Shown one piece after another: positions 27,721-43,854 of a stretch of 64,000 nucleotides of DNA. Source of the DNA: an uncultured Desulfobacteraceae bacterium (GTDB taxonomy: Bacteria > Desulfobacterota > Desulfobacteria > Desulfobacterales > JALSRD01); NCBI GenBank assembly GCA_964442705.1, contig CAYUAQ010000002.1, forward strand, positions 5,959-69,958, read 5' to 3'. The notes beneath the pieces were generated by a model. It had not been told where the DNA came from, did no database searches, and saw only the letters and a list, made by a program, of their open reading frames with translations. Made by a program: the position numbers and the translations under genes. Positions within the stretch are counted from its first letter, which is position 1. Every line of letters begins with the position of its first letter.

Positions 27721-29193
27721 TCACGGCCGGCTGCCGTATCGGTAGCGCAGGTCGTCGGTCATCACGCAGCGGCGGATGCGGGTAAACGAGCGCGGCCGGG
27801 TGTGGCCCTCGCCGTTGGTGGCGATGTGGAAAGAGACGTAGCCCTCCCCGGTGACGCCCACCCCGCCCAGGCCGCAGGCCCCGTTCTTTACGAAGGAGGC
27901 GCAGTCGGCGCGGCTGGCCATTTTCTGGATGTTCACCAAGCTGCTGGAGTGGATCGCCATGGTGTGTCCGAATCCCTGTTCGGCCGCCAGGGCCCGTTCG
28001 ATGGCCTGGTCCACGTCGAGGCAGCGCACCAGCGGCAGTATTGGCATGATCTGTTCGGTCCACACCAGGGGGTGGTCGGCATCGGTTTCCAGGATGACGA
28101 TCTGTACCTCGGGCCCCACCTCCAGGCCGATGGATTTCAGGATGAAGGCCGGTGACTTTCCGATGTAGTCCATGTTGATCACGCCGGGCGTGCCCGGCTC
28201 CCCGACTTCCTTGAAGATGTGCTTGAGCAGTGCTTCCCCCTGGGCCGCGTCGATCTCGTAGGCGCCATGCTCTTTCAGTTTGCGCTTCAACGGCTCCGCC
28301 ACCGCTTCGACCACGAAGATCTCCTTCTCGCTGGCGCAGGCGATGCAGTTGGAGAAGCCGGCACCCTGCACGATGCAGCTTGCGGCGCGGTCCAAGTCGG
28401 CGGTTTCGTCCACCACCACCGGCGGGTTGCCCGGACCGCCGGCGATGACCCGTTTGCCCGTCCGGGTGGCGAAATCCACCACCCCGTGACCGCCGGTGAC
28501 GGCGATCATGCCGATGTCGGGGTGGGTCATGAGATGCTGGGCCGAGGGCACCGAGGGCTCTTCCAGGCAGCACAGGCAGTTGGCCGGTCCGCCGGCTGCC
28601 GTGACGGCGGCGTTGAGGTCGCGGATCACCCGCGCCGACACCTCTTTAGTCCTGGGGTGGGGGTTGACCACCACGGTGTTGCCGCCGGCGAGCATCATGA
28701 CGGCGTTGAAGAGAATGCTGGGCGCCGCGTTGGTGACCGGGTGCACCGAGGCGATCACCCCCACCGGCAGCCGCTCGATGATGGTGACCCCCTTGTCGCC
28801 GGCGTAGACCTCGGGCGCCAGGTCCTCCATGCCCATGACCTCGCAGGCGGAGGTGTTCTTGCCCACGTTGTCCCCGGCCTTGCCGAGCCCGGTCTCTTCG
28901 AACTCCATGTTCCCGTAAATTTTGGCGTTTGCCCGTCCGGTCTCGCGAATGGCGTCAATCAGTCGCCCGCGCACCGCCAGCTGCAGGGCCACCAGTTTTT
29001 GCTGCGCCTGGCGGGCCGCCTGGATGCAGGCATCCATGTCCTGGAAAACACCGTCGGTGACGGTGCCTGTGGCGTCATCGCCGCCGGTTTCGCGTGTTTC
29101 GGCTGCGGGCGCAGGGTCGTTCTGCTCCTCCCGGGCGAGCCTGTCCACGACGGTTTCCACGATGCGTTCGATGAGTTTCTCGTCGAGTTTCAT
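27721..29193 (-). CDS. CoA-acylating aldehyde dehydrogenase (PduP/EutE type) with N-terminal encapsulation-peptide-like helix
   Basis: 490 aa. N-terminal amphipathic helix DEKLIERIVETVVDRLA plus a Pro/Ala/Gly/Asp linker. Catalytic-Cys region FSNCIACASEKE. C-terminus ...RSFTRIRRCVM, as in BMC aldehyde dehydrogenases. Confidence 0.9.
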   Translation of the reverse strand: MKLDEKLIERIVETVVDRLAREEQNDPAPAAETRETGGDDATGTVTDGVFQDMDACIQAARQAQQKLVALQLAVRGRLIDAIRETGRANAKIYGNMEFEETGLGKAGDNVGKNTSACEVMGMEDLAPEVYAGDKGVTIIERLPVGVIASVHPVTNAAPSILFNAVMMLAGGNTVVVNPHPRTKEVSARVIRDLNAAVTAAGGPANCLCCLEEPSVPSAQHLMTHPDIGMIAVTGGHGVVDFATRTGKRVIAGGPGNPPVVVDETADLDRAASCIVQGAGFSNCIACASEKEIFVVEAVAEPLKRKLKEHGAYEIDAAQGEALLKHIFKEVGEPGTPGVINMDYIGKSPAFILKSIGLEVGPEVQIVILETDADHPLVWTEQIMPILPLVRCLDVDQAIERALAAEQGFGHTMAIHSSSLVNIQKMASRADCASFVKNGACGLGGVGVTGEGYVSFHIATNGEGHTRPRSFTRIRRCVMTDDLRYRYGSRP

Positions 29194-29233
29194 GTCGGTT
29201 CTCTTTTGGTTTGCGGGTCGACCGGAAGCCTTC

Positions 29234-30199
29234 TCACGAACGGCGGTCCTCCTTCTGCGGCCACAGCGAGGTGATCTGCGGCGCGTCCGTGCGATAGGTC
29301 AGCCGCTGGTCGACATCGTCTTCGCGGTAGAATTCGTTGGCCTTCTCCACACCCCGGTCGAACTTGGACATGCAGCGCATGGCCTTGTGGTTGTCGAGAA
29401 AGGCGATCTCGTGCACCAGCGCCCCCAGAAAAACGATGATGTGGCCGAAGGGGTCCACGAAGGACACCCCCTCGATGTCGATGATCACGTACTGGTCCGA
29501 AAGCGTGACGATGGGCGACCGCGGGGTGTCGCTGATCCCGATGGTCCGCACGCCGCACTGCTTGGCGTATTTCATCATCTCGATGGTACGCCGTGGGTAG
29601 CGCGGAAACGCCAGGACCACCATCAGGGTGTTGGGGGGCCCCTCGTTCAGGGCGTCGGTCAGTTCCCAGGAGAGGCTGGTGTCGACGGTCACGTCTTCGC
29701 GCACTTTTTTCAGCAGGTATCCGAAATGGTAGGCCAGTGTGGCCGAGGCCCGGTAGCCGACCACGTACACCCGCTCGGCGTCGAAAATCGTGCGGGCGAT
29801 CTTCCTGAACTCCTCTTCCGTAATCGAGGCCAGCATGTTCTGCAGGTTGGCGATGGCGTTCCGGCAGTAGCGCTGGATGGTGCTCCCCTCGTCGGAAACC
29901 GGGCGCGTGTGGGTCAGGCGCTCGGAACTGGTCAGTTCGGTGTGCAGCAGGGCCTTCATGTAGTGCAGAAAGTCGGCGTAGCCGGAAAATCCCAGGTCCA
30001 CGCTGAAACGGATGATGGTCGGTTCGCTGACGCCGCACTTTTCGGCGATCTCCCGTGCCGTCATCAGAAAGATGTTCTTGTAGTCACGCATGATCATGTC
30101 CGCCACCCGTCGCTTCTTGGGAGACAGGCGCGGATAGACTTGAATGATCCTGTCGAACAGGTCTTTCTTGGCTGACTTTATCTCTTCGCCCCGGGGCAT
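29234..30199 (-). CDS. RpiR/MurR-family transcriptional regulator (HTH_6 + SIS)
   Basis: 321 aa. HTH LMTAREIAEKCGVSEPTIIRFSVDLGFSGYADF, then a SIS-type sugar-isomerase-like fold (RVYVVGYRASATLA...). Confidence 0.85.
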   Translation of the reverse strand: MPRGEEIKSAKKDLFDRIIQVYPRLSPKKRRVADMIMRDYKNIFLMTAREIAEKCGVSEPTIIRFSVDLGFSGYADFLHYMKALLHTELTSSERLTHTRPVSDEGSTIQRYCRNAIANLQNMLASITEEEFRKIARTIFDAERVYVVGYRASATLAYHFGYLLKKVREDVTVDTSLSWELTDALNEGPPNTLMVVLAFPRYPRRTIEMMKYAKQCGVRTIGISDTPRSPIVTLSDQYVIIDIEGVSFVDPFGHIIVFLGALVHEIAFLDNHKAMRCMSKFDRGVEKANEFYREDDVDQRLTYRTDAPQITSLWPQKEDRRS

Positions 30200-30202
30200 T
30201 GG

Positions 30203-30820
30203 TCAATGATTCCTTCCATCCAGGGAAGCCAGTGCGGTTTCGGCCGCCTCCCTGGCGGCCTGGATGTCCGAGGTGGAACCGGCCAGGTAGACCCGGCCGC
30301 TGGCACCGTAGACACTGACATGGTTGATGGTGATGCCGGCGGCTTTTTCCGCCTCGTTGGCCGCGTACCCGGCATAGCCGGCCGGCACGACCTCCAGGAT
30401 GTAGAGCGTGTCGTCGCTCAGCGACAGGCTGGCCGCCCGGAAGCGGTTGACGATCTGGCTCATGTAAGGGTTCAGCCGCTCGATGACCTCCGAGGACAGA
30501 ATCTTTGGCCGCAGCCGGTCGGCCTCACTGCAGCCCAGGTAGTCCAGCACCACCTCGCCCGCCAGCCGCACGTCGTCCGGGTCGTCGGCGTGCACTTCCA
30601 GCATGCCGTAGCTGCGCTCCACCACCAGCGCGCCGGGGCGCACGTTGGCCCTTTTCATGACCGTGTCGGTGATGGTGTTGATCTCCATGCCGGGCGCGAT
30701 TTCCAGGAACAGGGCCGCCTGGCCCGTGACGGGGTAGTACCCGCGGGAAGCCGAACCGATATAGGCCACCATCTGTTTCTGGAGCTGGTCGATGAAGGCG
30801 AAGGCTCTCAGGTCGATCAT
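30203..30820 (-). CDS. BMC-T shell protein, CcmP/CsoS1D-like tandem permuted BMC domains
   Basis: 205 aa. LRAFAFIDQLQKQMVAYIGSASRGY...LEIAPGMEINTITD...VVERSYGMLEVH... and LEVVPAGYAGYAANEAEKAAGITINHV...GRVYLAG; this matches the CcmP-type pattern. Confidence 0.85.
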   Translation of the reverse strand: MIDLRAFAFIDQLQKQMVAYIGSASRGYYPVTGQAALFLEIAPGMEINTITDTVMKRANVRPGALVVERSYGMLEVHADDPDDVRLAGEVVLDYLGCSEADRLRPKILSSEVIERLNPYMSQIVNRFRAASLSLSDDTLYILEVVPAGYAGYAANEAEKAAGITINHVSVYGASGRVYLAGSTSDIQAAREAAETALASLDGRNH

Positions 30821-30899
30821 GGGTCACCCGTGTGTTGCGTTGGCACCGATTTCCGCAGGCCGGGCCTCCGGCGCATCGGCGGTTGTCGTTGGGGCACGC

Positions 30900-32105
30900 T
30901 CATATGCTCTTGAGCCACTCGCGCCTGTTGGGGCACACGGCCGTGACGGTGGTGCAGGCGGCGTTGCCGTCGCAGGCGCACTCGTGCTCGGCGTCTTGGT
31001 AGAAGCGCCCGTAGCAGAAATCGTGAATGGGCAGCGAGGTCTGGCAGTCCAGGATCAGCTCGCCGATCAGCCGGCCGATGACAGGCGCCAGGCCGAAACC
31101 GTGGCCGCAGAAACCCGTCACGAACACGAACCCGGGCACCTCCGAGGTGAGCCCCAGCACCGGGATGCCGTCCGAGGTCTGGGCGATGAGGCCCGACCAC
31201 ATGCGGATCACGTTGAGGTTCCTGAGCACCGGGAAATAATCGATGACCATCCGCGAAATGGCCGGCCCGATGTGGTGAAACAGCGGTTTGCCCCGGCGGT
31301 AGATGAACTGCTCGGTGCCCACGAAACCGCCCCAGAAGAAGGGTCCGTGCACCGTCTGCCGGCCGTAGAACAGCCCCCTGGCGTGCCCCACCATCTGCGC
31401 GAAGAGCGGCGGGTAGGGCTCGGTGATCATGGCCTCGGAAAAAATAGGGCGCATGGGAAAATCCAGCCCCACCATGTTGGCGATGCGCCGGCCGGCCACC
31501 CCGGCGGCGTTGACCACCACTTCGGTTTCAAAAACGTGTTTGTCGGTCACCACCGCGCTCACGCGTCCCTTGCGCAGCCGGATGCGGTGCACCTCCTCCT
31601 GGGTGTAGAAGCGCGCCCCCAGGCTCTTGGCCTTCTTGAAGTAGCCGTAAGTCACCAGGAAGGGATTGACGTGGCCATCCGTGGGACAGAAGCTGGCGCC
31701 CACGACCTTTTCTCCCACGTAGGGGTTGATCTCCAGCACCTGGCGGCGGTCGAGCATCTCCAGCTCCAGGCCCGCTTTCTTCTGGTTCTCCACCGCGTTT
31801 CGCATCAGATCCAGCTCTTCCTCGCAGGTGCACAGCCGCAGGTTTCCCTGGCGCACGTACTCCACGTCCATGCCCAATTCCTCGTGCAGCTGGCCGTACA
31901 TGCGGATGCTCTCCATGGCCAGCGGCATTTCCTTGAGGTTGCGGGCGGACTGGCGCACACCGCCGCCGGTGCTGCCGGATGCCTCGCCGCCGATGTCGGA
32001 CTTTTCGATAACCACCGGCTTCAATCCGGCCTTGGCCAGGTTGTAGGCGATGGCGCATCCCATGACGCCGCCGCCGATGATGACCGTGTCGGCTTTCTCG
32101 GTCAT
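30900..32105 (-). CDS. FAD-dependent amine/amino-acid dehydrogenase, DAO family (SoxB/HcnC/OoxB-like catalytic subunit)
   Basis: Start at MTEKADTVIIGGGVMGCAIAYNLA (32105, GGAGG RBS); the 88-aa upstream extension of the track ORF is rejected. 401 aa with a Cys-rich C-terminal tail. Confidence 0.85.
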   Translation of the reverse strand: MTEKADTVIIGGGVMGCAIAYNLAKAGLKPVVIEKSDIGGEASGSTGGGVRQSARNLKEMPLAMESIRMYGQLHEELGMDVEYVRQGNLRLCTCEEELDLMRNAVENQKKAGLELEMLDRRQVLEINPYVGEKVVGASFCPTDGHVNPFLVTYGYFKKAKSLGARFYTQEEVHRIRLRKGRVSAVVTDKHVFETEVVVNAAGVAGRRIANMVGLDFPMRPIFSEAMITEPYPPLFAQMVGHARGLFYGRQTVHGPFFWGGFVGTEQFIYRRGKPLFHHIGPAISRMVIDYFPVLRNLNVIRMWSGLIAQTSDGIPVLGLTSEVPGFVFVTGFCGHGFGLAPVIGRLIGELILDCQTSLPIHDFCYGRFYQDAEHECACDGNAACTTVTAVCPNRREWLKSI

Positions 32106-32131
32106 TGGACCTCCTGTGTTCGTAGGCTCTC

Positions 32132-32797
32132 TCAGCTGTTGGCAAAAACCTGCAGGCGAATGGGCCGCACCGGACCCCGGGCGGTGGTGGGGTCGATGTC
32201 TCCGGGTGCCAAGCCCAACTCCTCGGTCAGGATGCGCGCCACCAGCGTCTGGCAGGTCTGCCCCTGGCACAGCCCCATGCCGGCCCGGGTGATGCGCTTG
32301 ATGCCGTTTAACGTATGCATGCCGTTGCGGATGGCTTCCTTGATCTCCCCCTTGGTGATCTCCTCGCATCGGCAGATGACCAGGTCGTCGTCAGGGTCGC
32401 GGGTCTGCCCGCCGGTATCGGCCCCATCCGATGCGGCCGCCGGCGCCGCCGGGGTCGGTTCCCCCTTGAGCTGCCGGAAGCGCCGGATGACGCGCTCAAC
32501 GATCTCATCGAGCTGCGCCTCGGTAAACCCGTCTGCAGCATCCGCCGCGTCCCCGCCGGATGGCTTCTCCGGCGTTTCCGGCTCTTTGGAGTCCGTCGCC
32601 GGATCGGCGGACTCTTCCTCCGGCGAAGGGGCAGGAACGCTTTTCCCCGAGGCCACCGTTTTGACGCGAATGCCGTGCTCCCGAATCAGATCGGCGGCCG
32701 CCGAAGAGATACGGGCCCCCCCGGGGACTTCGATTTCCTTCTGTCCGGACCTCACCAGGTGCCGGACTTGCTCGGCGAATATGAAAACAGGTGCCAT
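32132..32797 (-). CDS. BFD-like [2Fe-2S] protein with N-terminal EutQ-N-like motif and internal encapsulation-peptide-like helix
   Basis: 221 aa. C-terminal ICRCEEITKGEI...GMGLCQGQTC (BFD-type). The central helix EAQLDEIVERVIRRFRQL is flanked by low-complexity Pro/Ala/Glu/Asp linkers. Confidence 0.75.
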   Translation of the reverse strand: MAPVFIFAEQVRHLVRSGQKEIEVPGGARISSAAADLIREHGIRVKTVASGKSVPAPSPEEESADPATDSKEPETPEKPSGGDAADAADGFTEAQLDEIVERVIRRFRQLKGEPTPAAPAAASDGADTGGQTRDPDDDLVICRCEEITKGEIKEAIRNGMHTLNGIKRITRAGMGLCQGQTCQTLVARILTEELGLAPGDIDPTTARGPVRPIRLQVFANS

Positions 32798-32836
32798 GCG
32801 GATACTCCCATTCTGCCGCGTGCTTGCTTCGCGCGG

Positions 32837-33217
32837 TTACTTTCCGGACTTCTTCGAACGCCGCGCCGACGGCCTGGCCTTTTTCGCTCGTGCGCCGGCC
32901 CCTGCGCCCCGGGCCTTGCGGTTTCCGGCGGGCGCCGCAGCCTCGGCCGGCTGCCCAACGGCGGCATCGATGTCGTCGGAAGGCCGCGGGATCACGTGCA
33001 CCGACACCACCTGTCCGACGCGCTCGCAGGCGGCGCTGCCGGCGTCGACGGCGGCCTTGACGGCCCCCACATCGCCGCTCACCATGACGGCCACCAGGCC
33101 GCCCTTGACCTTCTGTCGCCCCAGAAATTTCACCCGGGCGGCCTTCACCATGGCGTCCGCCGCCTCGATGGCGCCCACCAGTCCGTGGGTCTCGATCATT
33201 CCCAGTGCCTGCTGCAT
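32837..33217 (-). CDS. BMC-H shell protein (PduA/EutM type) with polybasic C-terminal extension
   Basis: 126 aa. [29 protein letters not shown]...VSVHVIPRP canonical BMC domain, plus a tail ending [28 protein letters not shown]. Confidence 0.92.
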
Positions 33218-33293
33218 GCTTTCCTCCCCTGCTGTTTCATGAAATCCGCCGGCCCGTGGCTGTCCTTATCCGTTGGCGTGCACCCCCGTGTGC

Positions 33294-33911
33294 TCATGGC
33301 TTGCGCCCCTCGAGGGCCTTCAGGGTTTCGTCGATCTTGCGGGCCGCGGCCTCGATCTCCGATTCGCTGCCCGCCAGGTAGATGCGCCCGGCGGCACCGA
33401 AGAAACGAATGTCCACCAGCCGCACGTCGCAGTGCTTTTCGGCCTCGTTGGCCGCGATGGACGAGTAGGCCGCCGGTGTAACCTCCAGCAGATAGACGTC
33501 GTCCCCGCCCAGGATCAGCATGCCCTTGCTGTTGCGGTTGATGATGACGGCCTGGTAGGGGTCGATCTTGTGAATCACGCTGGACGACAGGATGCTGGGC
33601 GCCAGGCGGTCCTGCTCGCGCAGCCCGAGTTCCTCCAGAATCATCTGCCCGGCGTGCAGCACGTCCTCGCGCTCGAAAGAGTGGATCTCCATCATGCCAT
33701 AGCGCCGCTCGACGATCATTTCTCCGGGCTTGCAGTTGGTGACCTTCAGGGAAATGTCGGCCAGGCGGTTGATCTCCACCCCCGGCAGTACTTCCACGAA
33801 AAGCGACGCCATGCCCTCCACGGACAGGAATCCCCGGCACGAGCTGGCAAACAAGGATGCGAACTGCGGCTGCATGCGGTCCAGATGACAAAAGGCTCTC
33901 AGTTCGGCCAT
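33294..33911 (-). CDS. BMC-T shell protein, CcmP/CsoS1D-like (second copy)
   Basis: 205 aa, paralogous to 30203-30820. LRAFCHLDRMQPQFASLFASSCRGF...VEVLPGVEINRLAD...LEVTPAAYSSIAANEAEKHCDVRLVDI...GRIYLAG. Confidence 0.85.
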   Translation of the reverse strand: MAELRAFCHLDRMQPQFASLFASSCRGFLSVEGMASLFVEVLPGVEINRLADISLKVTNCKPGEMIVERRYGMMEIHSFEREDVLHAGQMILEELGLREQDRLAPSILSSSVIHKIDPYQAVIINRNSKGMLILGGDDVYLLEVTPAAYSSIAANEAEKHCDVRLVDIRFFGAAGRIYLAGSESEIEAAARKIDETLKALEGRKP

Positions 33912-34010
33912 ACTATGATCTCCAGACGTTTGGACGATTGTGAACGTGAACCCGAAAAGTCTGCCTCCGGTTCCACGAAAATGTTATTGAAAAACATGCC
34001 ATTTCCGGCT

Positions 34011-34865
34011 TCATTGCTCCGGCACATCCGCCGGAACGATCCGCACGCCGTACTCCCTGGCCAGGTCGCGCGCCAGCGGTGTGACGATGCCGCCGGCGGA
34101 CAGGGTCAGGCGGTCTGCGCCGGCCTCCCTGGCCTGACGGATATCCTGGGTCGAAATCAAGCGGCGGCCCGTTTCGCCTCTCTCCGGTCCGCCGGGGCCT
34201 TCGTCGGCCAAACCTGCCCGACCGGTGCTGCGGGCCAGCTTCTCGAAATGCTCGGCCAGTCGTTCCGTCTCGCACAGCTGCATGCCGAAGCGCTCCAGTT
34301 TTTCCAGCACGCGCTGCATCTCGCGGGCCATGGCCGGGTTGGCCATCCTGTCCAGCAGCGTGAATCCGTCGTTGGCGGCCAGCACCGGCTTGTTGGCCGC
34401 AAGGGCCGAGAGCACCAGGGCGCTGCCCTGATCGTCGGCCGCCATTTGCGCCACGCGCACCGCCGTCTGAAAGCAGAAGGTCGGCAGCACCAGCACGTCC
34501 GCACGCTCGAGCACCTTCTCGATGCCATCGGGTCCGACGGTGTCCAGGATGCACCGGCTGCCCGCTTTTTCCCGCACGTCACTTCCGCAGACCCATTGGC
34601 GCGCGGCATCCACGGTAAAGACGCCGGCGCGGCCGGCCAGAGTCTCGATGCGGCGCACCTGTGCCAGGGCCGCTTCCAGCCGCCGCACACCGGGGTGAAA
34701 GACGCACAGGACCGTCGGTCCGGTCTTGTTTCGGTGCGGCGCGCGTTTTTCAGCGGGCGGCTTCACCAGCCCCTCCTCCCTGAGAATTTCCAATACCAGC
34801 CGACGGATGCGTTGCCGCCGGTCGGAAAATGCTTTTCCCTGCTGCTGTGTCACTTCGTCTTCCAC
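34011..34865 (-). CDS. BMC-associated protein of unknown function (N-terminal EP-like helix, Rossmann/flavoprotein-like middle, C-terminal EutQ-N-like motif)
   Basis: 284 aa. N-terminus RQRIRRLVLEILREEGL plus a Pro/Lys linker. Middle ADVLVLPTFCFQTAVRVAQMAADDQGSALVLSALAANKPVLAAN resembles the flavoprotein (CoaC-like) fold. C-terminus LISTQDIRQAREAGADRLTLSAGGIVTPLARDLAREYGVRIV. Confidence 0.55.
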   Translation of the reverse strand: MEDEVTQQQGKAFSDRRQRIRRLVLEILREEGLVKPPAEKRAPHRNKTGPTVLCVFHPGVRRLEAALAQVRRIETLAGRAGVFTVDAARQWVCGSDVREKAGSRCILDTVGPDGIEKVLERADVLVLPTFCFQTAVRVAQMAADDQGSALVLSALAANKPVLAANDGFTLLDRMANPAMAREMQRVLEKLERFGMQLCETERLAEHFEKLARSTGRAGLADEGPGGPERGETGRRLISTQDIRQAREAGADRLTLSAGGIVTPLARDLAREYGVRIVPADVPEQ

Positions 34866-34911: not shown

Positions 34912-35733
34912 CTAGCGCTTGTCCAGGCAGGACAACGCGATTCCCAGCGGCGTGGTGAACTGCGGAAAAGGCGGCCGGAAAGTCTCCATTCCCAACGCCT
35001 TCTGAACGATGTCGCAAAACCCCTCCAGTTCGCAGGTGCCGCCTACCAGGCAGACGCGGTTGAGCCCCTCGAAGGGCTGCAGGCATCTTTCCACGATGGC
35101 GGCGATCTTTTCGATCACCGGCCGCACCATCGAAAGTACTTCCCGGCTCATGGCCGGGTCGGTCTTGATCTTTTCGGCCGCCTCGTAGTCGATGCCGCGG
35201 TTGCCGGCCACCACCAGGGTCAGGTGCACGCCGCCGGTGGCCTCGTCGTCGGTGAAGACCACGCCTCCCCCCTGGATCACGGCGATGCCGGTGGTGCCGC
35301 CGCCCACGTCGACGATGGCGCCATTGCCGATGCCCAGCACCCGGTTGGCGGCCGTGGGTTCGTCGGGGACGCTCAGTACTTCCAGTCCTGCGCCTTCGAG
35401 AATGTAGCGCGTGGCGTCCACGTTGGCGTCCTCGGTGCGCGGCGGATAGGAGGTGGCGCCCTGTTCGACGGGCAGCGGGCTGGCGCTGCGCATCTCCTCG
35501 ATCATCTCTCCAACCATCTGCCGCGCCCCGGCAAAATCGACGATCAGCCCGCTGCGCACCACTTCCGCCCGCCGCATGCGCGCGGCCCGCGGCCTTCCCT
35601 GCTCGTCGACGATGATCACGATGGCCTTGTAGGTCCCCAGGTCCACGCCCGCATACAGCCGTTCGGCCCCCGCGAAATCCCAGCGCTGCGGGCGATTGAC
35701 CAGGCGTGACAGCGCTTTGCCCGCATCGCTCAT
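34912..35733 (-). CDS. eutJ: EutJ-like actin/Hsp70-fold ATPase
   Basis: 273 aa. Phosphate-1 YAGVDLGTYKAIV and phosphate-2 IVDVGGGTTGIAV, with the size and layout of EutJ. ATGA overlap with the next gene. Confidence 0.8.
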   Translation of the reverse strand: MSDAGKALSRLVNRPQRWDFAGAERLYAGVDLGTYKAIVIIVDEQGRPRAARMRRAEVVRSGLIVDFAGARQMVGEMIEEMRSASPLPVEQGATSYPPRTEDANVDATRYILEGAGLEVLSVPDEPTAANRVLGIGNGAIVDVGGGTTGIAVIQGGGVVFTDDEATGGVHLTLVVAGNRGIDYEAAEKIKTDPAMSREVLSMVRPVIEKIAAIVERCLQPFEGLNRVCLVGGTCELEGFCDIVQKALGMETFRPPFPQFTTPLGIALSCLDKR

Positions 35734-36281
35734 AGGATGCTCCGCCCCAGCTGCGGGCTGGGATAGGGAATGACGGTGTGGCTCAGAACCAGGCCGCTGC
35801 CCTTGAGGGTGTCGATGCCGGCCTCCACGGCCGCGTGGATGGACGACACGTCGCCCGTCAGGGTGAGAAACGATTTTCCCCCCAGCCCGGTGGCGCAGCG
35901 GATCTCGATGATCTCGACATCCGCGGCCTTGACCGCGGCGTCGGCCGCCGTGATGGCCGAGGCCACCGAGAAGGTCTCGATGACGGCCAGGGAATCGATG
36001 GCCCGGATGCGGGTGGTGGCCGTCAGGGCCGGGAACACCGAGGCGTGCACGTTGGGGATGACGAAGTCGTCCACCAAAAATTCCCCGGCCGCCTCGCGGC
36101 CGACATCCGCGGCGCGCTCCACCGAGTCCACATCGCCGGACACCAGCACCATGAACTTGCCGGCACAGATGGGCTGTGCCATGACAAGGTCCACATCGGC
36201 GGATTTGAGCATTTCGTCCGCACTTTCCACGCCGCGGGCGACGCTGTTGAGCTCGATCATGGCGATGGCTTTCAGTTCCAT
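35730..36281 (-). CDS. BMC-T shell protein, PduT-like tandem BMC domains
   Basis: Start at MELKAIAMIELNSVARGVESADEMLK (36281, GGGGA RBS), 183 aa. Second domain LAVIETFSVASAITAADAAVKAADV. Cys in AQPICAGKF sits where PduT ligates its pore [4Fe-4S] cluster. Confidence 0.85.
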   Translation of the reverse strand: MELKAIAMIELNSVARGVESADEMLKSADVDLVMAQPICAGKFMVLVSGDVDSVERAADVGREAAGEFLVDDFVIPNVHASVFPALTATTRIRAIDSLAVIETFSVASAITAADAAVKAADVEIIEIRCATGLGGKSFLTLTGDVSSIHAAVEAGIDTLKGSGLVLSHTVIPYPSPQLGRSIL

Positions 36282-36366: not shown

Positions 36367-37698
36367 TCAACGACGGATGACAATATCAGGCCCCACCGAC
36401 ACGACCTCACCGTCGATGCTGGCGTGTACCCGCGCCCCCAGGGCGCCCTCGGGAATCTCGCCGACGAGATCCCCCTCCCGGACGCGGTCCCCGGCGCGCA
36501 CCACGGGCACGGCCGGTTTTCCCAGGTGCTGCTGCAGCGGAATGCGGACCTCGGCAATGTCGGCCGCCCCCTCTTGAAACGGCGGGTGCACATCGTAGCG
36601 CGCCACCTGCAGCCGCTCCATCAGGCGCCGGACCGGCACCTTGCGCGTTTCCAGGAACATCGAAGCCCGGTAGGTCTCGCGGCTGGGTTCACGTTTGACG
36701 CCTTCTTTAAGCAGTTTCTGTTTTACGGCCGCGTTGATTTCCCGCGGCGACAGCATCATGGGGCAGGCAAACTTCTCGCAGATGCCGCACTCGCAGCAGA
36801 TCAGGGCGTCCTCGAGTACTTCCCCCTCCATGCCCGGCGTGTAGGCCAGGTGCCGCATGATGCGGTGCGGCTCCAGCCGGTGGCCGATCAGGTAGCGCGG
36901 GCACAGGTCCGTACAGCGCGAGCACTGGGTACAGGCGGACTTGGCGATCATGCGCATCTGGGTGAGGCTGCGCTGCTTGCCCTGCAGGACATTGTGGCCG
37001 GCCGGCAGCACGATGACCCCGCTGGTGGTCTTGGTGACCGGCGCGCTCTCGTCTTCCAGCACGCGGCCCATCATGGGCCCGCCCGAGACGACGCCGTAAT
37101 CGGAGACCGTCGCCCCCCCGGCCAGGGCGATGACGTCGCGCACCGGCGTGCCGACGGGCAGCCGACAGACCATGGGCTGCCGCACTTCGCCGCACACCGT
37201 CAGATAGCGGTGGGTGACCGGTCGGCCGGCCATGGCGCGCGCGATGTTGAGCAGCGACTCCACGTTGCTGACCACGGTCTGCACGTGCAGCGGGATGCCG
37301 CCCTCGGGGACGATTTTGCCCGTCACCTCGTGCACCAGTATGAACTCGTCCCCGGCCGGGTAGAAGTCTTCCAGTTCGAACACGTCGACCCGCTCCCCGC
37401 AGCCCCGGGCGGAAACCGCCTCGCGCAGCGCCGACACGGCCTGCGGGTGCTTGGACTTCAGGCAGAGCGTGCCGCGGGGGGCATCGGTGCAGTCCATGAC
37501 CGTCAACAGGCCGTCCACGATGGTGGGCGCCTCCCCGGTCATCAGGTGCGGGTCACCGGCCAGCAGCGGTTCGCAGGAGGCGCCGTTGGCCAGCACCCGC
37601 TGCGCCTCGAACTGCAGCTTGACGTGCGTCGGGAACCCGGCGCCACCGGCGCCGACCACGCCCGCCGCCCGCACCTTGTCGACGATATCGGCTCTCAT
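36367..37698 (-). CDS. PduS/RnfC-like Fe-S flavoprotein (electron transfer)
   Basis: 443 aa. AGVVGAGGAGFPTHVKL, two ferredoxin motifs (CTQCSRCTDLCP; CCECGICEKFACP) and a C-terminal barrel-sandwich-like segment. Confidence 0.85.
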   Translation of the reverse strand: MRADIVDKVRAAGVVGAGGAGFPTHVKLQFEAQRVLANGASCEPLLAGDPHLMTGEAPTIVDGLLTVMDCTDAPRGTLCLKSKHPQAVSALREAVSARGCGERVDVFELEDFYPAGDEFILVHEVTGKIVPEGGIPLHVQTVVSNVESLLNIARAMAGRPVTHRYLTVCGEVRQPMVCRLPVGTPVRDVIALAGGATVSDYGVVSGGPMMGRVLEDESAPVTKTTSGVIVLPAGHNVLQGKQRSLTQMRMIAKSACTQCSRCTDLCPRYLIGHRLEPHRIMRHLAYTPGMEGEVLEDALICCECGICEKFACPMMLSPREINAAVKQKLLKEGVKREPSRETYRASMFLETRKVPVRRLMERLQVARYDVHPPFQEGAADIAEVRIPLQQHLGKPAVPVVRAGDRVREGDLVGEIPEGALGARVHASIDGEVVSVGPDIVIRR

Positions 37699-37988
37699 TT
37701 AGGCTTTCCGCCGGCCGCGTCGTCCATTTCCAGGTTGTCGACAATCCCGACCACCACGGCGTCCACGGGCACCGGTTCGTCGCGTCCGAAGGACTGCATG
37801 GCCGGCGTTCCCTGGGTGACGATCACCAGTTCCCCGAAGCCGGCACCCACCTCGTCGGCGGCGATCAGCACGCCGCCCTCGGGTTTCATGTTCCCGCCCA
37901 GCGGCTGAATGAACAGCAGTCTCAGCGCCGCTATGGCGTCCTTTTTCTTGCTGGACCACACGTTTCCGATCACTTTGGCTAATAACAT
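37695..37988 (-). CDS. BMC-P pentameric vertex protein (EutN/PduN/CcmL family)
   Basis: 97 aa. MLLAKVIGNVWSSKK...IAADEVGAGFGELVIVTQGTPA...VDAVVVGIVD. Confidence 0.88.
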   Translation of the reverse strand: MLLAKVIGNVWSSKKKDAIAALRLLFIQPLGGNMKPEGGVLIAADEVGAGFGELVIVTQGTPAMQSFGRDEPVPVDAVVVGIVDNLEMDDAAGGKPK

Positions 37989-38037: not shown

Positions 38038-38349
38038 TCATTTCAGATCCTCCGAGGCCTCGATGGCCGCGATGCTGGCCTTGACATCGGCGATGTCGCC
38101 GAAGACGCCGATCATGGTGATGTGCTGGGGGCACAGTCCCCGCAGGTCGAAAACGCGGACATCGGCGGCCTTCTCGGCCACGTCGGCGGCCGCGATCATG
38201 TCCACCAGCTTCCCCTGCACGAGCCCCACGGCCGTGAAGGGGATCTCCGCCTCGGCGAACACCTTCTTGCCGGCCGCCCCGGCCCGCTGCCGGAGCATCT
38301 CGAAGACCCCCGGCGCGGGGTGGGATATGATGCGCGTGTTGAATGCCAT
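38038..38349 (-). CDS. circularly permuted BMC-H shell protein (EutS/PduU-like)
   Basis: Start at MAFNTRIISHPAPGV (38349, AGGGGG RBS), 103 aa. AVGLVQGKLVDMIAAADVAEKAADVRVFDLRG...IGVFGDIADVKASIAAI parallels the EutS/PduU order of elements. Confidence 0.75.
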   Translation of the reverse strand: MAFNTRIISHPAPGVFEMLRQRAGAAGKKVFAEAEIPFTAVGLVQGKLVDMIAAADVAEKAADVRVFDLRGLCPQHITMIGVFGDIADVKASIAAIEASEDLK

Positions 38350-38362
38350 TTTAAACCCCCTG

Positions 38363-38408
38363 GCGACACCCGGAAAACGCCCCGCCTGGAGCGCTGCTCC
38401 GGTGTCGC
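38363..38408 (-). other. nested intercistronic hairpin upstream of the EutS-like gene
   Basis: Outer 8-bp stem GCGACACC/GGTGTCGC (38363-38370 / 38401-38408) encloses an inner GGAGC-GCT-GCTCC hairpin (38388-38400). It ends about 13 nt from the RBS, inside a 195-nt GC-rich gap. Confidence 0.3.
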
Positions 38409-38544
38409 GGGTTGCTTCAGAAAGCACCCTGCCCGGTCTTGACGGGCCCGCCGCTGCGCTTCACCGGCCGTCTCGCGGCAACGCCGCGGAACACACCGGC
38501 ACCGGGCGCATGCGCGGTGGCAGAGGGCGCTCCGGGCCGGCCGC

Positions 38545-38823
38545 TCAATCGGCCTTGGGAATCGTGAATTCGATGTCGGCGTGCGGTCTGGGTATGACGT
38601 GCACCGAAACGAGTTCGCCGACGCGCTCGGCCGCGGCGCCGCCGGCATCCGTGGCCGCCTTCACGGCCCCCACGTCGCCGCGCACGAACACGGCCACCAG
38701 GCCGCCGCCCACGAACTCGCGGCCCACGAACTTCACCTTGGCTGCCTTGACCATCGCGTCGGCCGCCTCGATGGCGCCCACCAGGCCTCTGGTTTCAATC
38801 ATACCCAATGCTTGCTCGGCCAT
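38545..38823 (-). CDS. BMC-H shell protein (PduA/EutM type)
   Basis: 92 aa. [34 protein letters not shown]...[10 protein letters not shown]. Confidence 0.93.
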
Positions 38824-38902: not shown

Positions 38903-39430
38903 TCATCCGGCCGCCGCCGGCGGCCGGCCGTTTTTCAAACGAATGGCACGGGCCTGCATGGACCAATCCAGCGGCACCTCGATGGTCACCGTGGCGGTCT
39001 GGTCCATTTTTTTTCCCTGCCGCACCGCCGCCACACGGGCGTCGCCCAGTTCCCGCCCGGACCGGTCCAGGGCCGTGACAACGTCACCCTCCTCCGGCAG
39101 GGGCAGGTACTCGTAAGGCATCATCACGCTGGCGCGGCCGTCGCCGGGACCCTCGTCGACCAGGAAAATGGCCTGTCCCGGACAGATGTACACGCAGGTC
39201 CGGCAGGCTACGCACTTTTCGCCGTCCAAGTGCGGGATGCCGGTGATGTCGTCGCCCACGACGATGGCGCCGAACTTGCAGCTGGTTTCACACGGGTTGC
39301 AGGGAATGTCCTGCAGGCACTCGATGCAGGCCACCGGTCCCTTGCGGCGGCGTTCGGCTGAGGGCACTCCCGGCGCCTCCAGGAGTTCTTCTTCGGAAAG
39401 GTAGCCCGTAACAGCGGAATCATGCCCCAT
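38903..39430 (-). CDS. ferredoxin-like Fe-S subunit of the amine dehydrogenase complex
   Basis: 175 aa. Cys motifs CIECLQDIPCNPCETSC and CVACRTCVYICP. Overlaps the upstream subunit gene by 11 nt. Confidence 0.7.
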   Translation of the reverse strand: MGHDSAVTGYLSEEELLEAPGVPSAERRRKGPVACIECLQDIPCNPCETSCKFGAIVVGDDITGIPHLDGEKCVACRTCVYICPGQAIFLVDEGPGDGRASVMMPYEYLPLPEEGDVVTALDRSGRELGDARVAAVRQGKKMDQTATVTIEVPLDWSMQARAIRLKNGRPPAAAG

Positions 39431-40523
39431 CTGACTGCCCTTTCATTATGGCGTTGAGGTACTGCTTGGCCTTGCCGCGCCGCTCGCCGTGGCTGCCGCT
39501 GCGCAGCCCCTGGATGCTCTTGTACTGCCGGCCGCGCTGCTCGAGAAAGGACTTCTTGTCGAGGTAGCCCAGGCTGTGGGCGATGGCCAGCCCGGCGATG
39601 CGGCCCTCGATGATGGCGGTGCTGGCCTCCTCGATGCCGGAGATATCGCCGGCGACAAAAATACCCTCGATGGAGGTCTCCATGTTCATGTCATGGGCCG
39701 GTATGCGGCCGCCCAGGGCCGGCACGTGGGCCATGCGGCAGCCGGCCATGCGCAGCAGCTGGGTCATGGGGTTGAGACCTACGGCGATGCAGATGGTGTC
39801 GACCTCGAAATGCTTCTCGGTACCGGCGACAGGTTTCCAGGCCTCGTCCACCTGGACCACCGTGGCGCCCTCCACGCGGTCCGTCCCGTGGGCCGCCTTG
39901 ATGGTGTGCGACATCAGGAAGGGCACCCCCACGCGGGCAATCTTGGCGGCGTGCACGGCATAGGCGCCGATGCGGGGCGCCGCGTCGATGACCGCCGCCA
40001 CGCGGCAGCCAGCCTGCAGCATCTGGTAGCTCACGATGACACCCACGTTGCCCGAACCGATCATGAGGATGTCATTACCCGGCCGGATGCCGTGGATATT
40101 GGCCATGGTCTGTGCCGCGCCAGCGCCGATGACCCCGGGCAGGGTCCAGCCCGGGAAAGGGATCATGTTCTCGGAGGCGCCGGTGGCCACCAGGGTCTTT
40201 TCGCCGCGCACCTGCTCGATGCGGTCACCGATCATGACGTTCATGGCGTGGTTTTCGTAGATGCCCAGTACGACCGAATTGAGGGAGACCTCGACACCCC
40301 GTTCGCGGGCCTCGGCCAGCAGCATGCCGCCGATGTTGAACCCGCGCTCGCGGGCGTGGTGCTCCTGGGATCCGAAGAACTTGTGGATCTGCTTGAACAG
40401 CTGACCGCCCGGGCGTTCGTTTTCGTCGAACACGATCGCCTGCACCCCGTGGCGGGCGGCTTCCACGGCAGCGGCCAGCCCGGCCGGCCCGGCCCCTACG
40501 CATATCATTTCATATCGGCGCAT
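39420..40523 (-). CDS. FAD/NAD(P)-binding pyridine-nucleotide-disulfide-oxidoreductase-like subunit (HcnB/OoxA/SoxA-core-like)
   Basis: 367 aa. Two dinucleotide folds (ICVGAGPAGLAAA; MIGSGNVGVIV) and FVAGDISG near the C-terminus. No folate/GcvT-like domain. Confidence 0.8.
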   Translation of the reverse strand: MRRYEMICVGAGPAGLAAAVEAARHGVQAIVFDENERPGGQLFKQIHKFFGSQEHHARERGFNIGGMLLAEARERGVEVSLNSVVLGIYENHAMNVMIGDRIEQVRGEKTLVATGASENMIPFPGWTLPGVIGAGAAQTMANIHGIRPGNDILMIGSGNVGVIVSYQMLQAGCRVAAVIDAAPRIGAYAVHAAKIARVGVPFLMSHTIKAAHGTDRVEGATVVQVDEAWKPVAGTEKHFEVDTICIAVGLNPMTQLLRMAGCRMAHVPALGGRIPAHDMNMETSIEGIFVAGDISGIEEASTAIIEGRIAGLAIAHSLGYLDKKSFLEQRGRQYKSIQGLRSGSHGERRGKAKQYLNAIMKGQSDGA

Positions 40524-40526
40524 GAA

Positions 40527-40844
40527 TCACTCCCTGGTCTTTGGGGGGCCCTTACCTCTCTGGGTTTCCACCACCATGCCGGCCCGGAGGGGCTCGACGC
40601 AGGTGCGGATGTTGGGCTGTCCGTTGACCACCATGATGCAGTCGGTGCAGCGGCCGATGGCGCAGAACATGCCGCGCGGTTCGTTGCGCCGGGCCGTGTA
40701 ACGGTGAACCATGACACCGTTGCTGTGCAGGGCCACGGCGATGGGTTCGCCTTCGTACCCCTCCATGGTCCTGCCGTCGTAAGTGAACTCCACCCGCGGC
40801 CCCTTTTCAAACTGTCCGAGTATGGGATGCGCTTCGATTCTCAT
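40527..40844 (-). CDS. small [2Fe-2S] subunit (HcnA / SoxA-N-terminal-like, Fer2_4 type)
   Basis: 105 aa. FTYDGRTMEGYEGEPIAVALHSNGV...FCAIGRCTDCIMVVNGQPNIRTC. Confidence 0.8.
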   Translation of the reverse strand: MRIEAHPILGQFEKGPRVEFTYDGRTMEGYEGEPIAVALHSNGVMVHRYTARRNEPRGMFCAIGRCTDCIMVVNGQPNIRTCVEPLRAGMVVETQRGKGPPKTRE

Positions 40845-40889
40845 GGCTGCATTCCTGCCGCTGATAATCCCGAAGAAAAAGTCGCCTGA

Positions 40890-42185
40890 CTAGTAAAACC
40901 CGAAGGGTTCGCCGAAGGTGAAATTGGACCCGATCAGCGGGATGCCGGTCATGGCACAGATCTCCAAGGTCAGCGAACGCAAATCCTCGCGCTCCAGGCT
41001 GGTCAGCTTGGTCTTGCCGGCGGCCTTGGCCAGGATGACGGCCTCGTTGGTCATGGCCTGGATGTAGTTGGCCACCTGCCGGGCGGCGCGGTCCACGTCC
41101 AGGCGAAGTCGCTCTTCGGGATCCTGGGTGCCGATGCCGAAGGCGCAGCGCCCCTCGTGGCAGCGCAGGCAGACCACGCACCCCATGGCGATCATGGCGC
41201 CGGTGCCGATGGCCACCGCATCGGCCCCCAGTGCCAGGGCCTTGGCCACGTCGGCCCCGTCCTTGATGCCGCCCGAGACGATCAGGCTGACCTCTTCCTT
41301 GACACCCATGTCCTCCAGGGAGCGCACGGCCTGCACCAGGGCCGGCAGCGTGGGAATGCCCAGGTGGTTGGAGGCCACCACCGGCGCCGCGCCGGTGCCG
41401 CCCTCGGCGCCGTCGATGACGATGCCGTCCACCCCGGCCTTGACCGCGATCTTGACGTCTTCCCAGACGCGGCCGGCGGCGATCTTGATGAAAATGGGAA
41501 TCTCACCGTCGGTGACGTCCCGCAGTTCCTCCATCTTGAGGCACAGGTCGTCGGCCCCGAAGATGTCGCCGTGGCGGGGATGGCTGTGCAGGTCGATGCC
41601 CTCGGGCAGCTGCCGGAATTCGGCGATCTCCTTGGTGATCTTGCTGGCCATCAGGTGCCCCGAGAGGCCCGGCTTGGCGCCGATGCCCACGATGATCTCC
41701 AGGGCGTCGGTGGCCTCGATGTTGCGCAGCGTGAAGCCTATGCGGCTGGGCAGGATCTGCACCACCTGCTTGTAGGAGTTGGCGCGCTCCTCGGGCAGCA
41801 GGCCGCCCTCGCCGTTGTTGATGGAGGTGCCCACGATGTCCGTGGCCTTGGCCAGGGCGATCTTGGCCTCCTTGCTCAGGGCGCCGTAAGACATGCCCGA
41901 GATCATGATGGGGGTTTCGATGACCAGGGGCTTCTTGGCGAAACGGGCGCCCAGCACCGTGCGAGTCTGGCAGTCCTCGCGGTAAGTGTCGATGGACATG
42001 CGCGTGAGCTGCGACGGCAGGAAGGTCAGGTCGTCAAAGTGCGGCAGCTTGCGCGGGGTGCCGCATCCCCGGATGCGGTGCTTGCCCGCGCTGGCCTTGT
42101 ACTTGATCTCCGATATGGTCTCCGCCGACCACACGCCCCGCTGGACATCCTTGGCTCTGGGGGTCTTCTTCTCTTCTGCGGCCAT
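40890..42185 (-). CDS. glutamate-synthase FMN-domain-like protein (MgsC/GlxD-like)
   Basis: 431 aa. ISGMSYGALS, DGAEGGTGAAP, GGIKDGADVAKALALGADAV, Cys cluster CVVCLRCHEGRC. ATGA overlap with the upstream gene. Confidence 0.85.
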   Translation of the reverse strand: MAAEEKKTPRAKDVQRGVWSAETISEIKYKASAGKHRIRGCGTPRKLPHFDDLTFLPSQLTRMSIDTYREDCQTRTVLGARFAKKPLVIETPIMISGMSYGALSKEAKIALAKATDIVGTSINNGEGGLLPEERANSYKQVVQILPSRIGFTLRNIEATDALEIIVGIGAKPGLSGHLMASKITKEIAEFRQLPEGIDLHSHPRHGDIFGADDLCLKMEELRDVTDGEIPIFIKIAAGRVWEDVKIAVKAGVDGIVIDGAEGGTGAAPVVASNHLGIPTLPALVQAVRSLEDMGVKEEVSLIVSGGIKDGADVAKALALGADAVAIGTGAMIAMGCVVCLRCHEGRCAFGIGTQDPEERLRLDVDRAARQVANYIQAMTNEAVILAKAAGKTKLTSLEREDLRSLTLEICAMTGIPLIGSNFTFGEPFGFY

Positions 42186-43773: not shown

Positions 43774-43854
43774 GGTGGGCCTCCCGTATCGGCTTGAAAT
43801 GGCTCCGGGCGTCTGCGATCGCCCCCGGAGCAGTGATTTGTTTTCCGCCGCGCC

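Follow-up and report, generated by a model that had tools for sequence, protein, structure and literature searches.

A 64,000-nucleotide stretch of DNA from an uncultured Desulfobacteraceae bacterium (contig CAYUAQ010000002.1, positions 5,959 to 69,958; hereafter the window) carries a microcompartment locus of the catalogued type MIC6, in which three proteins bear helices resembling encapsulation peptides (EPs): a CoA-acylating aldehyde dehydrogenase (AldDH), the BFD-type [2Fe-2S] subunit of a five-subunit Fe-S flavoprotein (hereafter BFD) and a 284-aa protein with a predicted flavoprotein-like fold. The three helices are conserved, compartment-specific add-ons that most likely recruit the AldDH, the Fe-S flavoenzyme and an accessory protein to the shell. 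The internally placed helix of BFD is best read, by analogy with EutQ, not as a terminal EP that has moved inwards but as part of an EutQ-N-like tether between shell and cargo that an enzyme subunit has acquired.

We consider it probable that the lumen of the MIC6 metabolosome is assembled through two portable add-ons distributed over these three proteins. The first (type A) would be the classical amphipathic encapsulation helix with a phi-xx-phi-phi-xx-phi-phi core, and the second (type B) a beta-alpha-beta domain of ~48 residues related to the N-terminal H1/H2 domain of EutQ; both are proposed to be absent from the non-compartment versions of the enzymes. The AldDH would carry type A alone, N-terminally, as a canonical EP of the EutE and PduP kind. 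BFD would carry type B, a disordered linker of 40-60 residues, type A, a linker of 25-37 residues and the catalytic domain, collinear with EutQ 1-99, and the 284-aa protein would have type A N-terminally and type B C-terminally. On the EutQ precedent, the small domain would dock on the shell, the helices would use their hydrophobic faces to bind each other and possibly the shell, and the AldDH and the five-subunit flavoprotein would thereby be condensed under the shell, the other four flavoprotein subunits piggy-backing on BFD. The assignment of shell-binding and cargo-binding elements, and encapsulation itself, we infer from EutQ and from classical EPs. The need for such a tether is supported by the search of the locus, in which no separate scaffold protein, EutQ orthologue or other recognisable dedicated linker was found.

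Three helices and their flanking linkers

Every gene of the region lies on the minus strand. Translation of that strand placed DEKLIERIVETVVDRLARE (29128-29184) at residues 4-22 of the AldDH, TEAQLDEIVERVIRRFRQL (32468-32524) at residues 92-110 of BFD and DRRQRIRRLVLEILREEGL (34767-34823) at residues 15-33 of the 284-aa open reading frame (ORF), confirming the three helices that an initial annotation of the window had proposed there. The AldDH was resolved into the following features (muH, hydrophobic moment).

27721-29193, minus strand: CoA-acylating aldehyde dehydrogenase, EutE/PduP type, 490 aa (Pfam Aldedh; NCBIfam PRK15398)
29134-29184, minus strand: N-terminal EP helix, residues 4-20, DEKLIERIVETVVDRLA (conserved in 13 orthologues; muH 0.61)
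29056-29133, minus strand: linker, residues 21-46, rich in Pro/Ala/Gly/Asp/Thr and poorly conserved (column identity 0.26)

The EutE-type model PRK15398 matched the AldDH over residues 4-483 (519.7 bits), and alignments to the non-compartment ACDH and AdhE models began only at residue 51, by which measure the EP is absent from non-compartment homologues. Across orthologous loci the N-terminus followed the consensus M.LDEK.I.QIVE.VV.KL, then a variable linker, then DGVFQDM, with column identities of 0.70 for the helix, 0.26 for the linker and 0.74 for the core. The helix is terminal, and its hydrophobic register is that of the E. coli EutC and EutE EPs. It is not new, having been recorded for MIC6 in the relevant entry of the 2021 microcompartment catalogue (Sutter et al., 2021; PMC8217296). 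A second AldDH paralogue, ~58-62% identical, directly follows the first in L005 (11414-12844), L007 (6794-8110) and L014 (15201-16631) and bears its own EP-like N-terminus (e.g., MAIDRKQVELIVEKVMDGL).

The helix of BFD lies in mid-protein, between two linkers.

32132-32797, minus strand: BFD-type [2Fe-2S] subunit of the five-subunit Fe-S flavoprotein, 221 aa (Pfam Fer2_BFD and SO_alpha_A3, residues 140-219)
32648-32797, minus strand: small folded N-terminal domain, residues 1-50, putatively EutQ-N-like (AlphaFold2 and sequence comparisons)
32525-32647, minus strand: linker 1, residues 51-91, disordered, low complexity (predicted local distance difference test, pLDDT, < 50; column identity 0.37)
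32462-32524, minus strand: internal EP-like helix, residues 92-112, TEAQLDEIVERVIRRFRQLKG (AlphaFold2 helix 93-111; muH 0.66)
32390-32461, minus strand: linker 2, residues 113-136, disordered (pLDDT < 50; column identity 0.34)

In an AlphaFold2 model built from a 24-sequence alignment, residues 1-50 adopted a beta-alpha-beta-alpha-beta fold (pLDDT 79-89) and residues 93-111 an isolated helix (pLDDT ~72) between stretches at pLDDT < 50 (52-89 and 116-137). The helix was a conserved island in a 24-sequence alignment; column identity was 0.78 for the helix, 0.37 and 0.34 for the two variable linkers around it and 0.88 for the small domain. A protein search recovered 746 relatives, the best 120 of which all had the full architecture (214-236 aa); the helix motif was found in 119 of these 120, the remaining one being a one-residue variant, and followed the consensus (I/F)(S/T)E.ELEEIV(N/D)R(V/I)(V/I).RF.QLKG. 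Linkers 1 and 2 measured 40-60 and 25-37 aa in the homologues and were rich in A/K/E/S/P/D/T. The extension amounts to ~135 residues, with 136 residues ahead of the DD..IICRCEE motif versus ~20-35 in non-compartment BFD subunits, which in 62 loci without shell genes measured 102-155 aa and lacked it. A 489-aa ORF overlapping the BFD gene (30900-32369) was rejected as an ORF-calling artefact, the true start of the FAD-oxidoreductase lying at 32108.

The BFD helix (residues 92-112 of 221) is thus not terminal and stands behind a 50-residue folded domain. EPs are defined as terminal helices (PMC12339742; the passages of PMC8217296 that deal with them), and a literature search found no described 'internal EP', the reviews defining EPs as terminal. 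The low-complexity linkers on both sides, predicted at pLDDT < 50 and of low column identity, are as the initial annotation had described them. Its view of the helix as an unusual internal EP held for the position; the helix is not a stand-alone EP, being the second element of a bipartite extension. For neither BFD nor the 284-aa protein is a helix or an extension described in the catalogue's passages on MIC6 (PMC8217296). Within the literature searched, the bipartite EutQ-N-like extension of BFD and the dual-ended 284-aa protein appear to be undescribed.

The features of the 284-aa protein were as follows.

34011-34865, minus strand: 284-aa protein, related to TIGR02536 'eut_hyp' (NCBIfam match, homologues; AlphaFold2 mean pLDDT 78)
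34767-34820, minus strand: N-terminal EP-like helix, residues 16-33, RRQRIRRLVLEILREEGL (invariant residues; AlphaFold2 helix)
34716-34766, minus strand: linker, residues 34-50, rich in Pro/Lys/Arg (pLDDT < 50 at 38-44; column identity 0.57)
34224-34715, minus strand: Rossmann-like core, residues 51-214 (AlphaFold2; Foldseek against PDB)
34026-34166, minus strand: small C-terminal domain, residues 234-280, EutQ-N-like (hhalign, BLASTP, NCBIfam EutQ model)

The ORF contains no ATG and has two candidate starts, GTG 34865 and GTG 34853. The latter is the likely start: close relatives are annotated from there (280 aa), and a GGAAGA motif lies just upstream. Homologues numbered 311 (~270 aa); more distant orthologues start directly at the helix, with the consensus MQKE.IS..VREVL.EKGLL in most of the 311, so that the helix, at residues 16-33 in the window, occupies their extreme N-terminus. 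Residues I20, V24, L28, G32 and L33 were invariant among 24 homologues, and column identity over the helix was 0.74. The match to TIGR02536 (E 6.8e-14) fell below the curated cut-off and covered only residues 117-277 (model positions 49-205), and a Pfam scan assigned the protein to no family. Names given to family members at JGI vary between 'ethanolamine utilization protein' and 'glycosyltransferase'.

In the AlphaFold2 model an N-terminal helix and a linker of low confidence precede a well-predicted core (51-214), which a disordered linker (216-233) joins to a small domain of beta-alpha-beta type (236-278). Foldseek of the core against PDB matched HFCD, UbiX, PPC-decarboxylase and flavodoxin-like FMN proteins, a flavodoxin from a PDU compartment among them (E from 7e-5; TM-scores relative to the target 0.5-0.65); a PDB sequence search with the family profile returned nothing meaningful. 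HFCD, UbiX, PPC-decarboxylase and flavodoxin-like folds are homo-oligomeric, and HFCD, UbiX and flavodoxin-type FMN proteins usually form trimers or dodecamers. Since the 284-aa protein combines the two elements, its role may be that of a bivalent adaptor more than of simple cargo; more speculatively, its EP-like helix, its homologue of a shell-binding domain and a core that may oligomerise could make it a multivalent scaffold, or else a redox partner. The initial annotation had counted the AldDH, the flavoprotein (through BFD) and this protein alike as cargo, which the compartment-specific extensions support for the first two and the possible adaptor role qualifies for the third.

Helicity and amphipathicity were compared across the three segments. 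AlphaFold2 placed helices in BFD and the 284-aa protein, and muH was 0.61 for the AldDH (99th percentile), 0.66 for BFD (99.7th) and 0.31 for the 284-aa protein (76th), with percentiles taken relative to all 18-mers of 24 locus proteins; on the same scale the validated E. coli EPs of EutC and EutE scored 0.43 (92nd) and 0.30 (75th). The segments therefore behave as amphipathic helices of ~15-20 residues adjoining poorly conserved, flexible linkers, as EPs do (column identity 0.26-0.57 for linkers versus 0.70-0.78 for helices). A literal motif, (I/L)xxxI(V/L)ExVxxR(L/F), had been put forward as common to all three; it holds in the AldDH, holds in BFD at all but the first position (off by one) and fails in the 284-aa protein, and was rejected as a shared signature. 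What the three helices share, with one another and with the E. coli EutC and EutE EPs, is the phi-xx-phi-phi-xx-phi-phi core. A stricter 12-residue pattern (phi-xx-phi-phi-xx-phi-phi-xx-phi with polar x) occurred only in the AldDH and BFD among the 24 locus proteins (2 observed versus 0.22 expected from shuffles).

That these are unrelated amphipathic helices, alike only through a heptad-like pattern, would accommodate the failure of the literal motif in one helix of the three and the unremarkable hydrophobic moment of the 284-aa helix. We regard such a chance resemblance as highly improbable, given the enrichment over shuffles, the position of all three helices in extensions adjoining linkers and, above all, their conservation: as the initial annotation had suggested checking, the motifs were sought in orthologous loci, and the helices proved to be conserved islands across distant orthologues (17 syntenic loci and hundreds of metagenome proteins).

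The small folded domain

Salmonella EutQ residues 1-99 are necessary and sufficient for compartment association; shell binding resides in H1/H2 (9-41), the flexible region (42-61) cannot be dispensed with, and H3/H4 (62-99) bind the EPs of EutC (1-20 was used) and EutE (2-21, a validated EP) with a dissociation constant of ~6-8 uM (PMC12487888, 2025). In E. coli EutQ the order is small domain, low-complexity linker, helix (FTESLVAQLMEKVMKEKQSLEQG) and cupin. The C-terminus of the 284-aa protein matched the EutQ N-terminal profile (hhalign probability 90%, E 1.5e-6), E. coli EutQ residues 2-49 (BLASTP E 8e-5) and positions 2-50 of the NCBIfam EutQ model, and is homologous to the shell-binding domain at the EutQ N-terminus. 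Residues 1-50 of BFD resemble the last 47 residues of the 284-aa protein (BLASTP E 1e-5; hhalign E 1.2e-4), so that the BFD domain probably belongs with the EutQ domain too, by an indirect link.

A hidden Markov model (HMM) built from the MIC6 small domains alone was searched against 393 six-frame ORFs of the 28-kb E. coli eut region, where EutQ (E 3.8e-5) and EutT (E 1.5e-3) were the sole matches with E < 1. The EutT match lies in the N-terminus of the E. coli protein (MKDFITEAWLRANHTLSEGAEIHLPADSRLTPSARELLESRHLRI; L081 21503-22306), from which the EutQ-N-like domain may, as judged from this similarity, tag the Eut adenosyltransferase as well. Pfam searches of the isolated small domains yielded no family, only sub-threshold E3_binding matches on the TPLARDLAREYG helix, which were taken as a motif resemblance only and rejected as an identity for the domain.

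Two copies of the domain (BFD and the 284-aa protein) and no further ones were found in the 64-kb window. A profile of the BFD N-terminal module, searched against 1.84 billion representative proteins, returned 40 proteins in three groups: BFD orthologues, including the divergent, helix-keeping P0386 and P0391; P0378, one BFD variant; and ~10 proteins with the small domain and a linker ahead of a Nitro_FeMo-Co (NifX-like) domain. A 1405-aa repeat protein from the same search (P0382) was discarded as a false positive with a repeated SVAADLI motif. NifX-like fusions are encoded inside MIC6 loci (L009 15722-16237; L010 16441-16980), and the domain is therefore a portable, MIC6-associated module. 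These L009 and L010 fusions (~180 aa: small domain, linker, NifX/NifB-like PF02579) sit between the AldDH and TRAP transporter genes and are not present in the window.

The two elements thus occur as domain-linker-helix (BFD), as an N-terminal helix with a C-terminal domain (the flavoprotein-fold protein) and as the domain only (the NifX-like proteins). Whether they form a portable two-element code, an EutQ-N-like shell-docking domain and an EP-like helix grafted variously onto proteins in place of a linker of the EutQ, PduB or CcmN type, we put forward tentatively, as a possibility somewhat short of even.

The main competitor to a grafted tether holds that all three helices, the internal one of BFD included, are classical EPs in direct contact with shell hexamers on their luminal side, in the way that PduA, J and K are bound by PduP and PduD, and that the small domain of BFD was added in front of the helix and has some other function, for instance in binding a partner or a ligand. 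The BFD helix fits the EutC/EutE EP register at least as well as it fits EutQ H4, it is flanked by linkers as EPs are, and the direct profile comparison between BFD and EutQ was not significant. Against this stand the terminal definition of EPs (PMC12339742 and, in the passages concerned, PMC8217296) and the small domain itself, which is compartment-specific, portable, present on three different MIC6 proteins and grouped with the EutQ shell-binding domain; moreover, it occurs in fusions without any helix, so that the domain alone is likely an association signal. We judge direct binding by all three helices to be unlikely.

Several observations weigh against the tether and its two add-ons. The collinear gapped BLASTP alignment of EutQ 5-120 with BFD 6-125, which places the BFD helix over EutQ H4 (FTEAQLDEIVERVIRRFRQLKGE) and in this speaks for the tether, is weak (E 0.039 in a two-sequence search), and the direct comparison of the BFD family profile with the EutQ N-terminal alignment, which was shallow and contained frameshifted fragments, was not significant. 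The hhalign probability between the BFD and 284-aa small domains was only 55%. BFD has one helix and no H3 equivalent, as against the H3/H4 pair of EutQ. The BFD model was poor overall (mean pLDDT 55), apart from residues 1-50 and the helix, and Foldseek of that model against PDB gave no match with E < 0.7. In the window the 284-aa helix is only moderately amphipathic (muH 0.31), yet comparable to validated EutE, and the linker behind it is semi-conserved (0.57 versus 0.74 for the helix). P0378 and the NifX-like fusions have no helix, and the helix is therefore not always required.

MIC6 loci and the flavoenzyme

The locus corresponds to MIC6 as described in Supplementary Data 2 of the catalogue, where three loci from anaerobic Deltaproteobacteria are listed with function unknown (Sutter et al., 2021; PMC8217296). 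The catalogued enzymes in that table are an AldDH whose N-terminus is an EP, a [2Fe-2S] protein of pfam04324 and an oxidoreductase of pfam01266 that ends in a compartment-specific extension of 30 residues containing four Cys; the catalogued shell comprises two BMC-H, one BMC-P, two CcmP-like BMC-T(dp) and PduT-type and GrpU-like Fe-S shell proteins, with PduS (PMC8217296). The window encodes the same enzyme set, down to the EP of the AldDH and the Cys tail of the oxidoreductase, and a corresponding shell set (Pfam BMC and EutN_CcmL matches, a tandem BMC protein and a PduS-like protein). Its shell genes lie at 38545-38823, 32837-33217, 37695-37988, 35730-36281, 33294-33911, 30203-30820 and 38038-38352. 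Its CcmP-like proteins matched NCBIfam models at 235 and 230 bits; the GrpU-like assignment of 38038-38427 has a partial BMC match only as its basis. A literature search on MIC6 returned the 2021 catalogue as the sole relevant source, the remaining matches concerning mitochondrial Mic60.

A genome scan (one genome per species) found the full-length BFD architecture in 17 loci, all syntenic with the window and all retaining the helices of the AldDH and the 284-aa protein. The carriers were Desulfobacterales, Desulfobacteraceae, Syntrophobacteraceae, Desulfatiglandales or Thermodesulfobacteriota metagenome-assembled genomes, within the host range of MIC6. With the BFD extension in 17 species-level genomes and in metagenome protein clusters numbering in the hundreds, many from Desulfobacterales and Olavius symbiont Delta 1 among the carriers, against the three loci in the catalogue's MIC6 entry, MIC6 is much commoner than the 2021 catalogue showed.

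The same scan yielded 63 loci, from Firmicutes, Spirochaetes and other groups, that showed no shell gene, and in 62 of them Fer2_4, SoxA-like, Fer4, BFD and DAO genes formed one contiguous operon. Apart from BFD, the corresponding subunits of the window were the following.

30900-32108, minus strand: DAO/SoxB-like FAD subunit with a Cys-rich C-terminal tail at ~30903-31001 (Pfam DAO)
40527-40844, minus strand: Fer2_4 subunit, no EP-like extension (collinear with non-compartment homologues)
39420-40523, minus strand: SoxA-like subunit, no EP-like extension (collinear with non-compartment homologues)
38903-39430, minus strand: Fer4 subunit, no EP-like extension (collinear with non-compartment homologues)

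Non-compartment homologues of the DAO subunit end near residue 369 plus ~4 aa, and MIC6 orthologues run to 402; the Cys-rich tail of ~30 residues (...HECACDGNAACTTVTAVCPNRREWLKSI) was absent in 61 non-compartment homologues and present in all MIC6 orthologues. The tail was already noted in the MIC6 description of Sutter et al. (2021; PMC8217296). It may provide an extra metal or Fe-S site for electron export. No added EP was found when the Fer2_4, SoxA-like and Fer4 proteins of the window were compared with their non-compartment homologues, and its GS, GATase, GXGXG and GltS-FMN proteins were collinear end to end with their non-compartment counterparts, with no extension or EP. Compartment-specific additions accordingly appear confined to the AldDH N-terminus, the BFD extension, both ends of the 284-aa protein and the tail of the DAO subunit. 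This distribution supports the AldDH and the flavoprotein (via BFD) as lumenal cargo, and the lack of extensions on the other flavoenzyme subunits and the GS/GltS-like enzymes fits piggy-back recruitment through BFD.

The SoxA-like and Fer4 proteins are separate ORFs overlapping by 11 nt in MIC6 and a single fusion of ~525 aa in non-compartment operons; the subunit architecture therefore does differ between the two settings. This would suit a role of the helices in enzyme assembly, by coiled-coil oligomerisation of the AldDH and the 284-aa protein or by docking of BFD on the split SoxA-like/Fer4 pair. Amphipathic helices commonly mediate oligomerisation, and EP helices in particular self-associate (PMC12339742). 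A fixed subunit interface would not, on the other hand, typically be flanked by long disordered linkers as the BFD helix is, the AldDH helix aligns from residue 4 with the EutE EP region of PRK15398 (EutE 2-21 being a validated EP), and the extensions occur only where shell genes are present. An assembly role in place of recruitment to the shell accordingly appears improbable.

The wider enzyme content of the locus was also noted. At 38903-45195 and 30900-32797 (minus strand) the window encodes GS-like, GATase-II, GXGXG and GltS-FMN proteins and the five-subunit SoxA/SoxB-like Fe-S flavoprotein, and the acylating AldDH is encoded in the locus too, as are a GATase1-type hydrolase and a TRAP transporter. 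In Syntrophomonas and Desulfosporosinus (L035, L037, L042 and L052) the nine enzyme genes stand together in a single operon that lacks shell genes, the GS, GATase, GXGXG and GltS-FMN genes preceding those of the flavoprotein. The GS-like, GATase-II, GXGXG and GltS-FMN proteins resemble GmaS/MgsABC of the N-methylglutamate pathway. Together with the SoxA/SoxB-like proteins and the AldDH, and with the set forming an operon elsewhere, this suggests that the signature reaction of MIC6 is the oxidation of an N-alkylglutamate or gamma-glutamyl-amine to an aldehyde. One BMC-H shell protein (32837-33217, minus strand) has a C-terminal tail of ~40 residues, very rich in Lys, Arg and Ala and only partially conserved in orthologues; this tail might contact acidic cargo linkers or nucleic acid.

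Relation to known microcompartment systems

EPs are the main bioinformatic handle for the cargo of uncharacterised microcompartments and a standard tag for loading engineered shells. The present helices point to the five-subunit Fe-S flavoprotein (through BFD) and the acylating AldDH as the encapsulated core of MIC6, and the likely aldehyde-generating signature enzyme is thereby identified. They also suggest that the mechanism by which EutQ links shell and cargo, described in 2025, is modular and not confined to Eut compartments. If this is borne out, microcompartments would have in the small folded domain a second address tag of general use besides EPs, which could be used to predict the cargo of uncharacterised compartments and in engineering.

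The helices of MIC6 resemble the EPs of EutE, EutC, PduP and PduD in being amphipathic, ~18 residues long and in the phi-xx-phi-phi-xx-phi-phi register, followed by a poorly conserved linker, and in their distribution over the AldDH and a single subunit of the enzyme that generates the aldehyde, on which the remaining subunits would piggy-back. Unlike in those systems, the BFD helix is non-terminal: a folded domain and ~40 residues of linker come before it, so that it starts only at residue 92. Its carrier belongs to an Fe-S flavoprotein, where the known systems use a B12 or glycyl-radical enzyme.

Parallels are also found in EutQ 1-99 (PMC12487888), which shares with BFD an order of elements (small domain of ~45 residues, flexible low-complexity linker, (F/I)(T/S)E-capped amphipathic helix, C-terminal functional domain) and with the 284-aa protein a homologous small domain; the MIC6 small-domain HMM in turn recovers EutQ. 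Neither MIC6 protein has the cupin acetate-kinase domain of EutQ: the C-terminal domain of BFD is a BFD [2Fe-2S] domain (Fer2_BFD/SO_alpha_A3), and the 284-aa protein has an HFCD/flavodoxin-like fold. BFD also has a single helix in place of H3 and H4, and in the 284-aa protein the two elements lie at opposite ends.

The pfam02866 dehydrogenases of MIC1 and MIC2, as described in the parts of the catalogue that concern them, likewise carry a compartment-specific N-terminal extension (~70 residues) with similarity to EutQ and likewise belong to uncharacterised metabolosomes (Sutter et al., 2021); that extension is on a different enzyme family and in a different locus type, and a ligand-binding role was suggested for it there. 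CcmN, CsoS2 and PduB 1-37 resemble the arrangement proposed for MIC6 in joining shell-binding and cargo-binding elements by flexible sequence into a bivalent linker (PMC12487888), and differ from it in that the putative adaptor elements of MIC6 are borne by a catalytic subunit and an accessory flavoprotein-fold protein.

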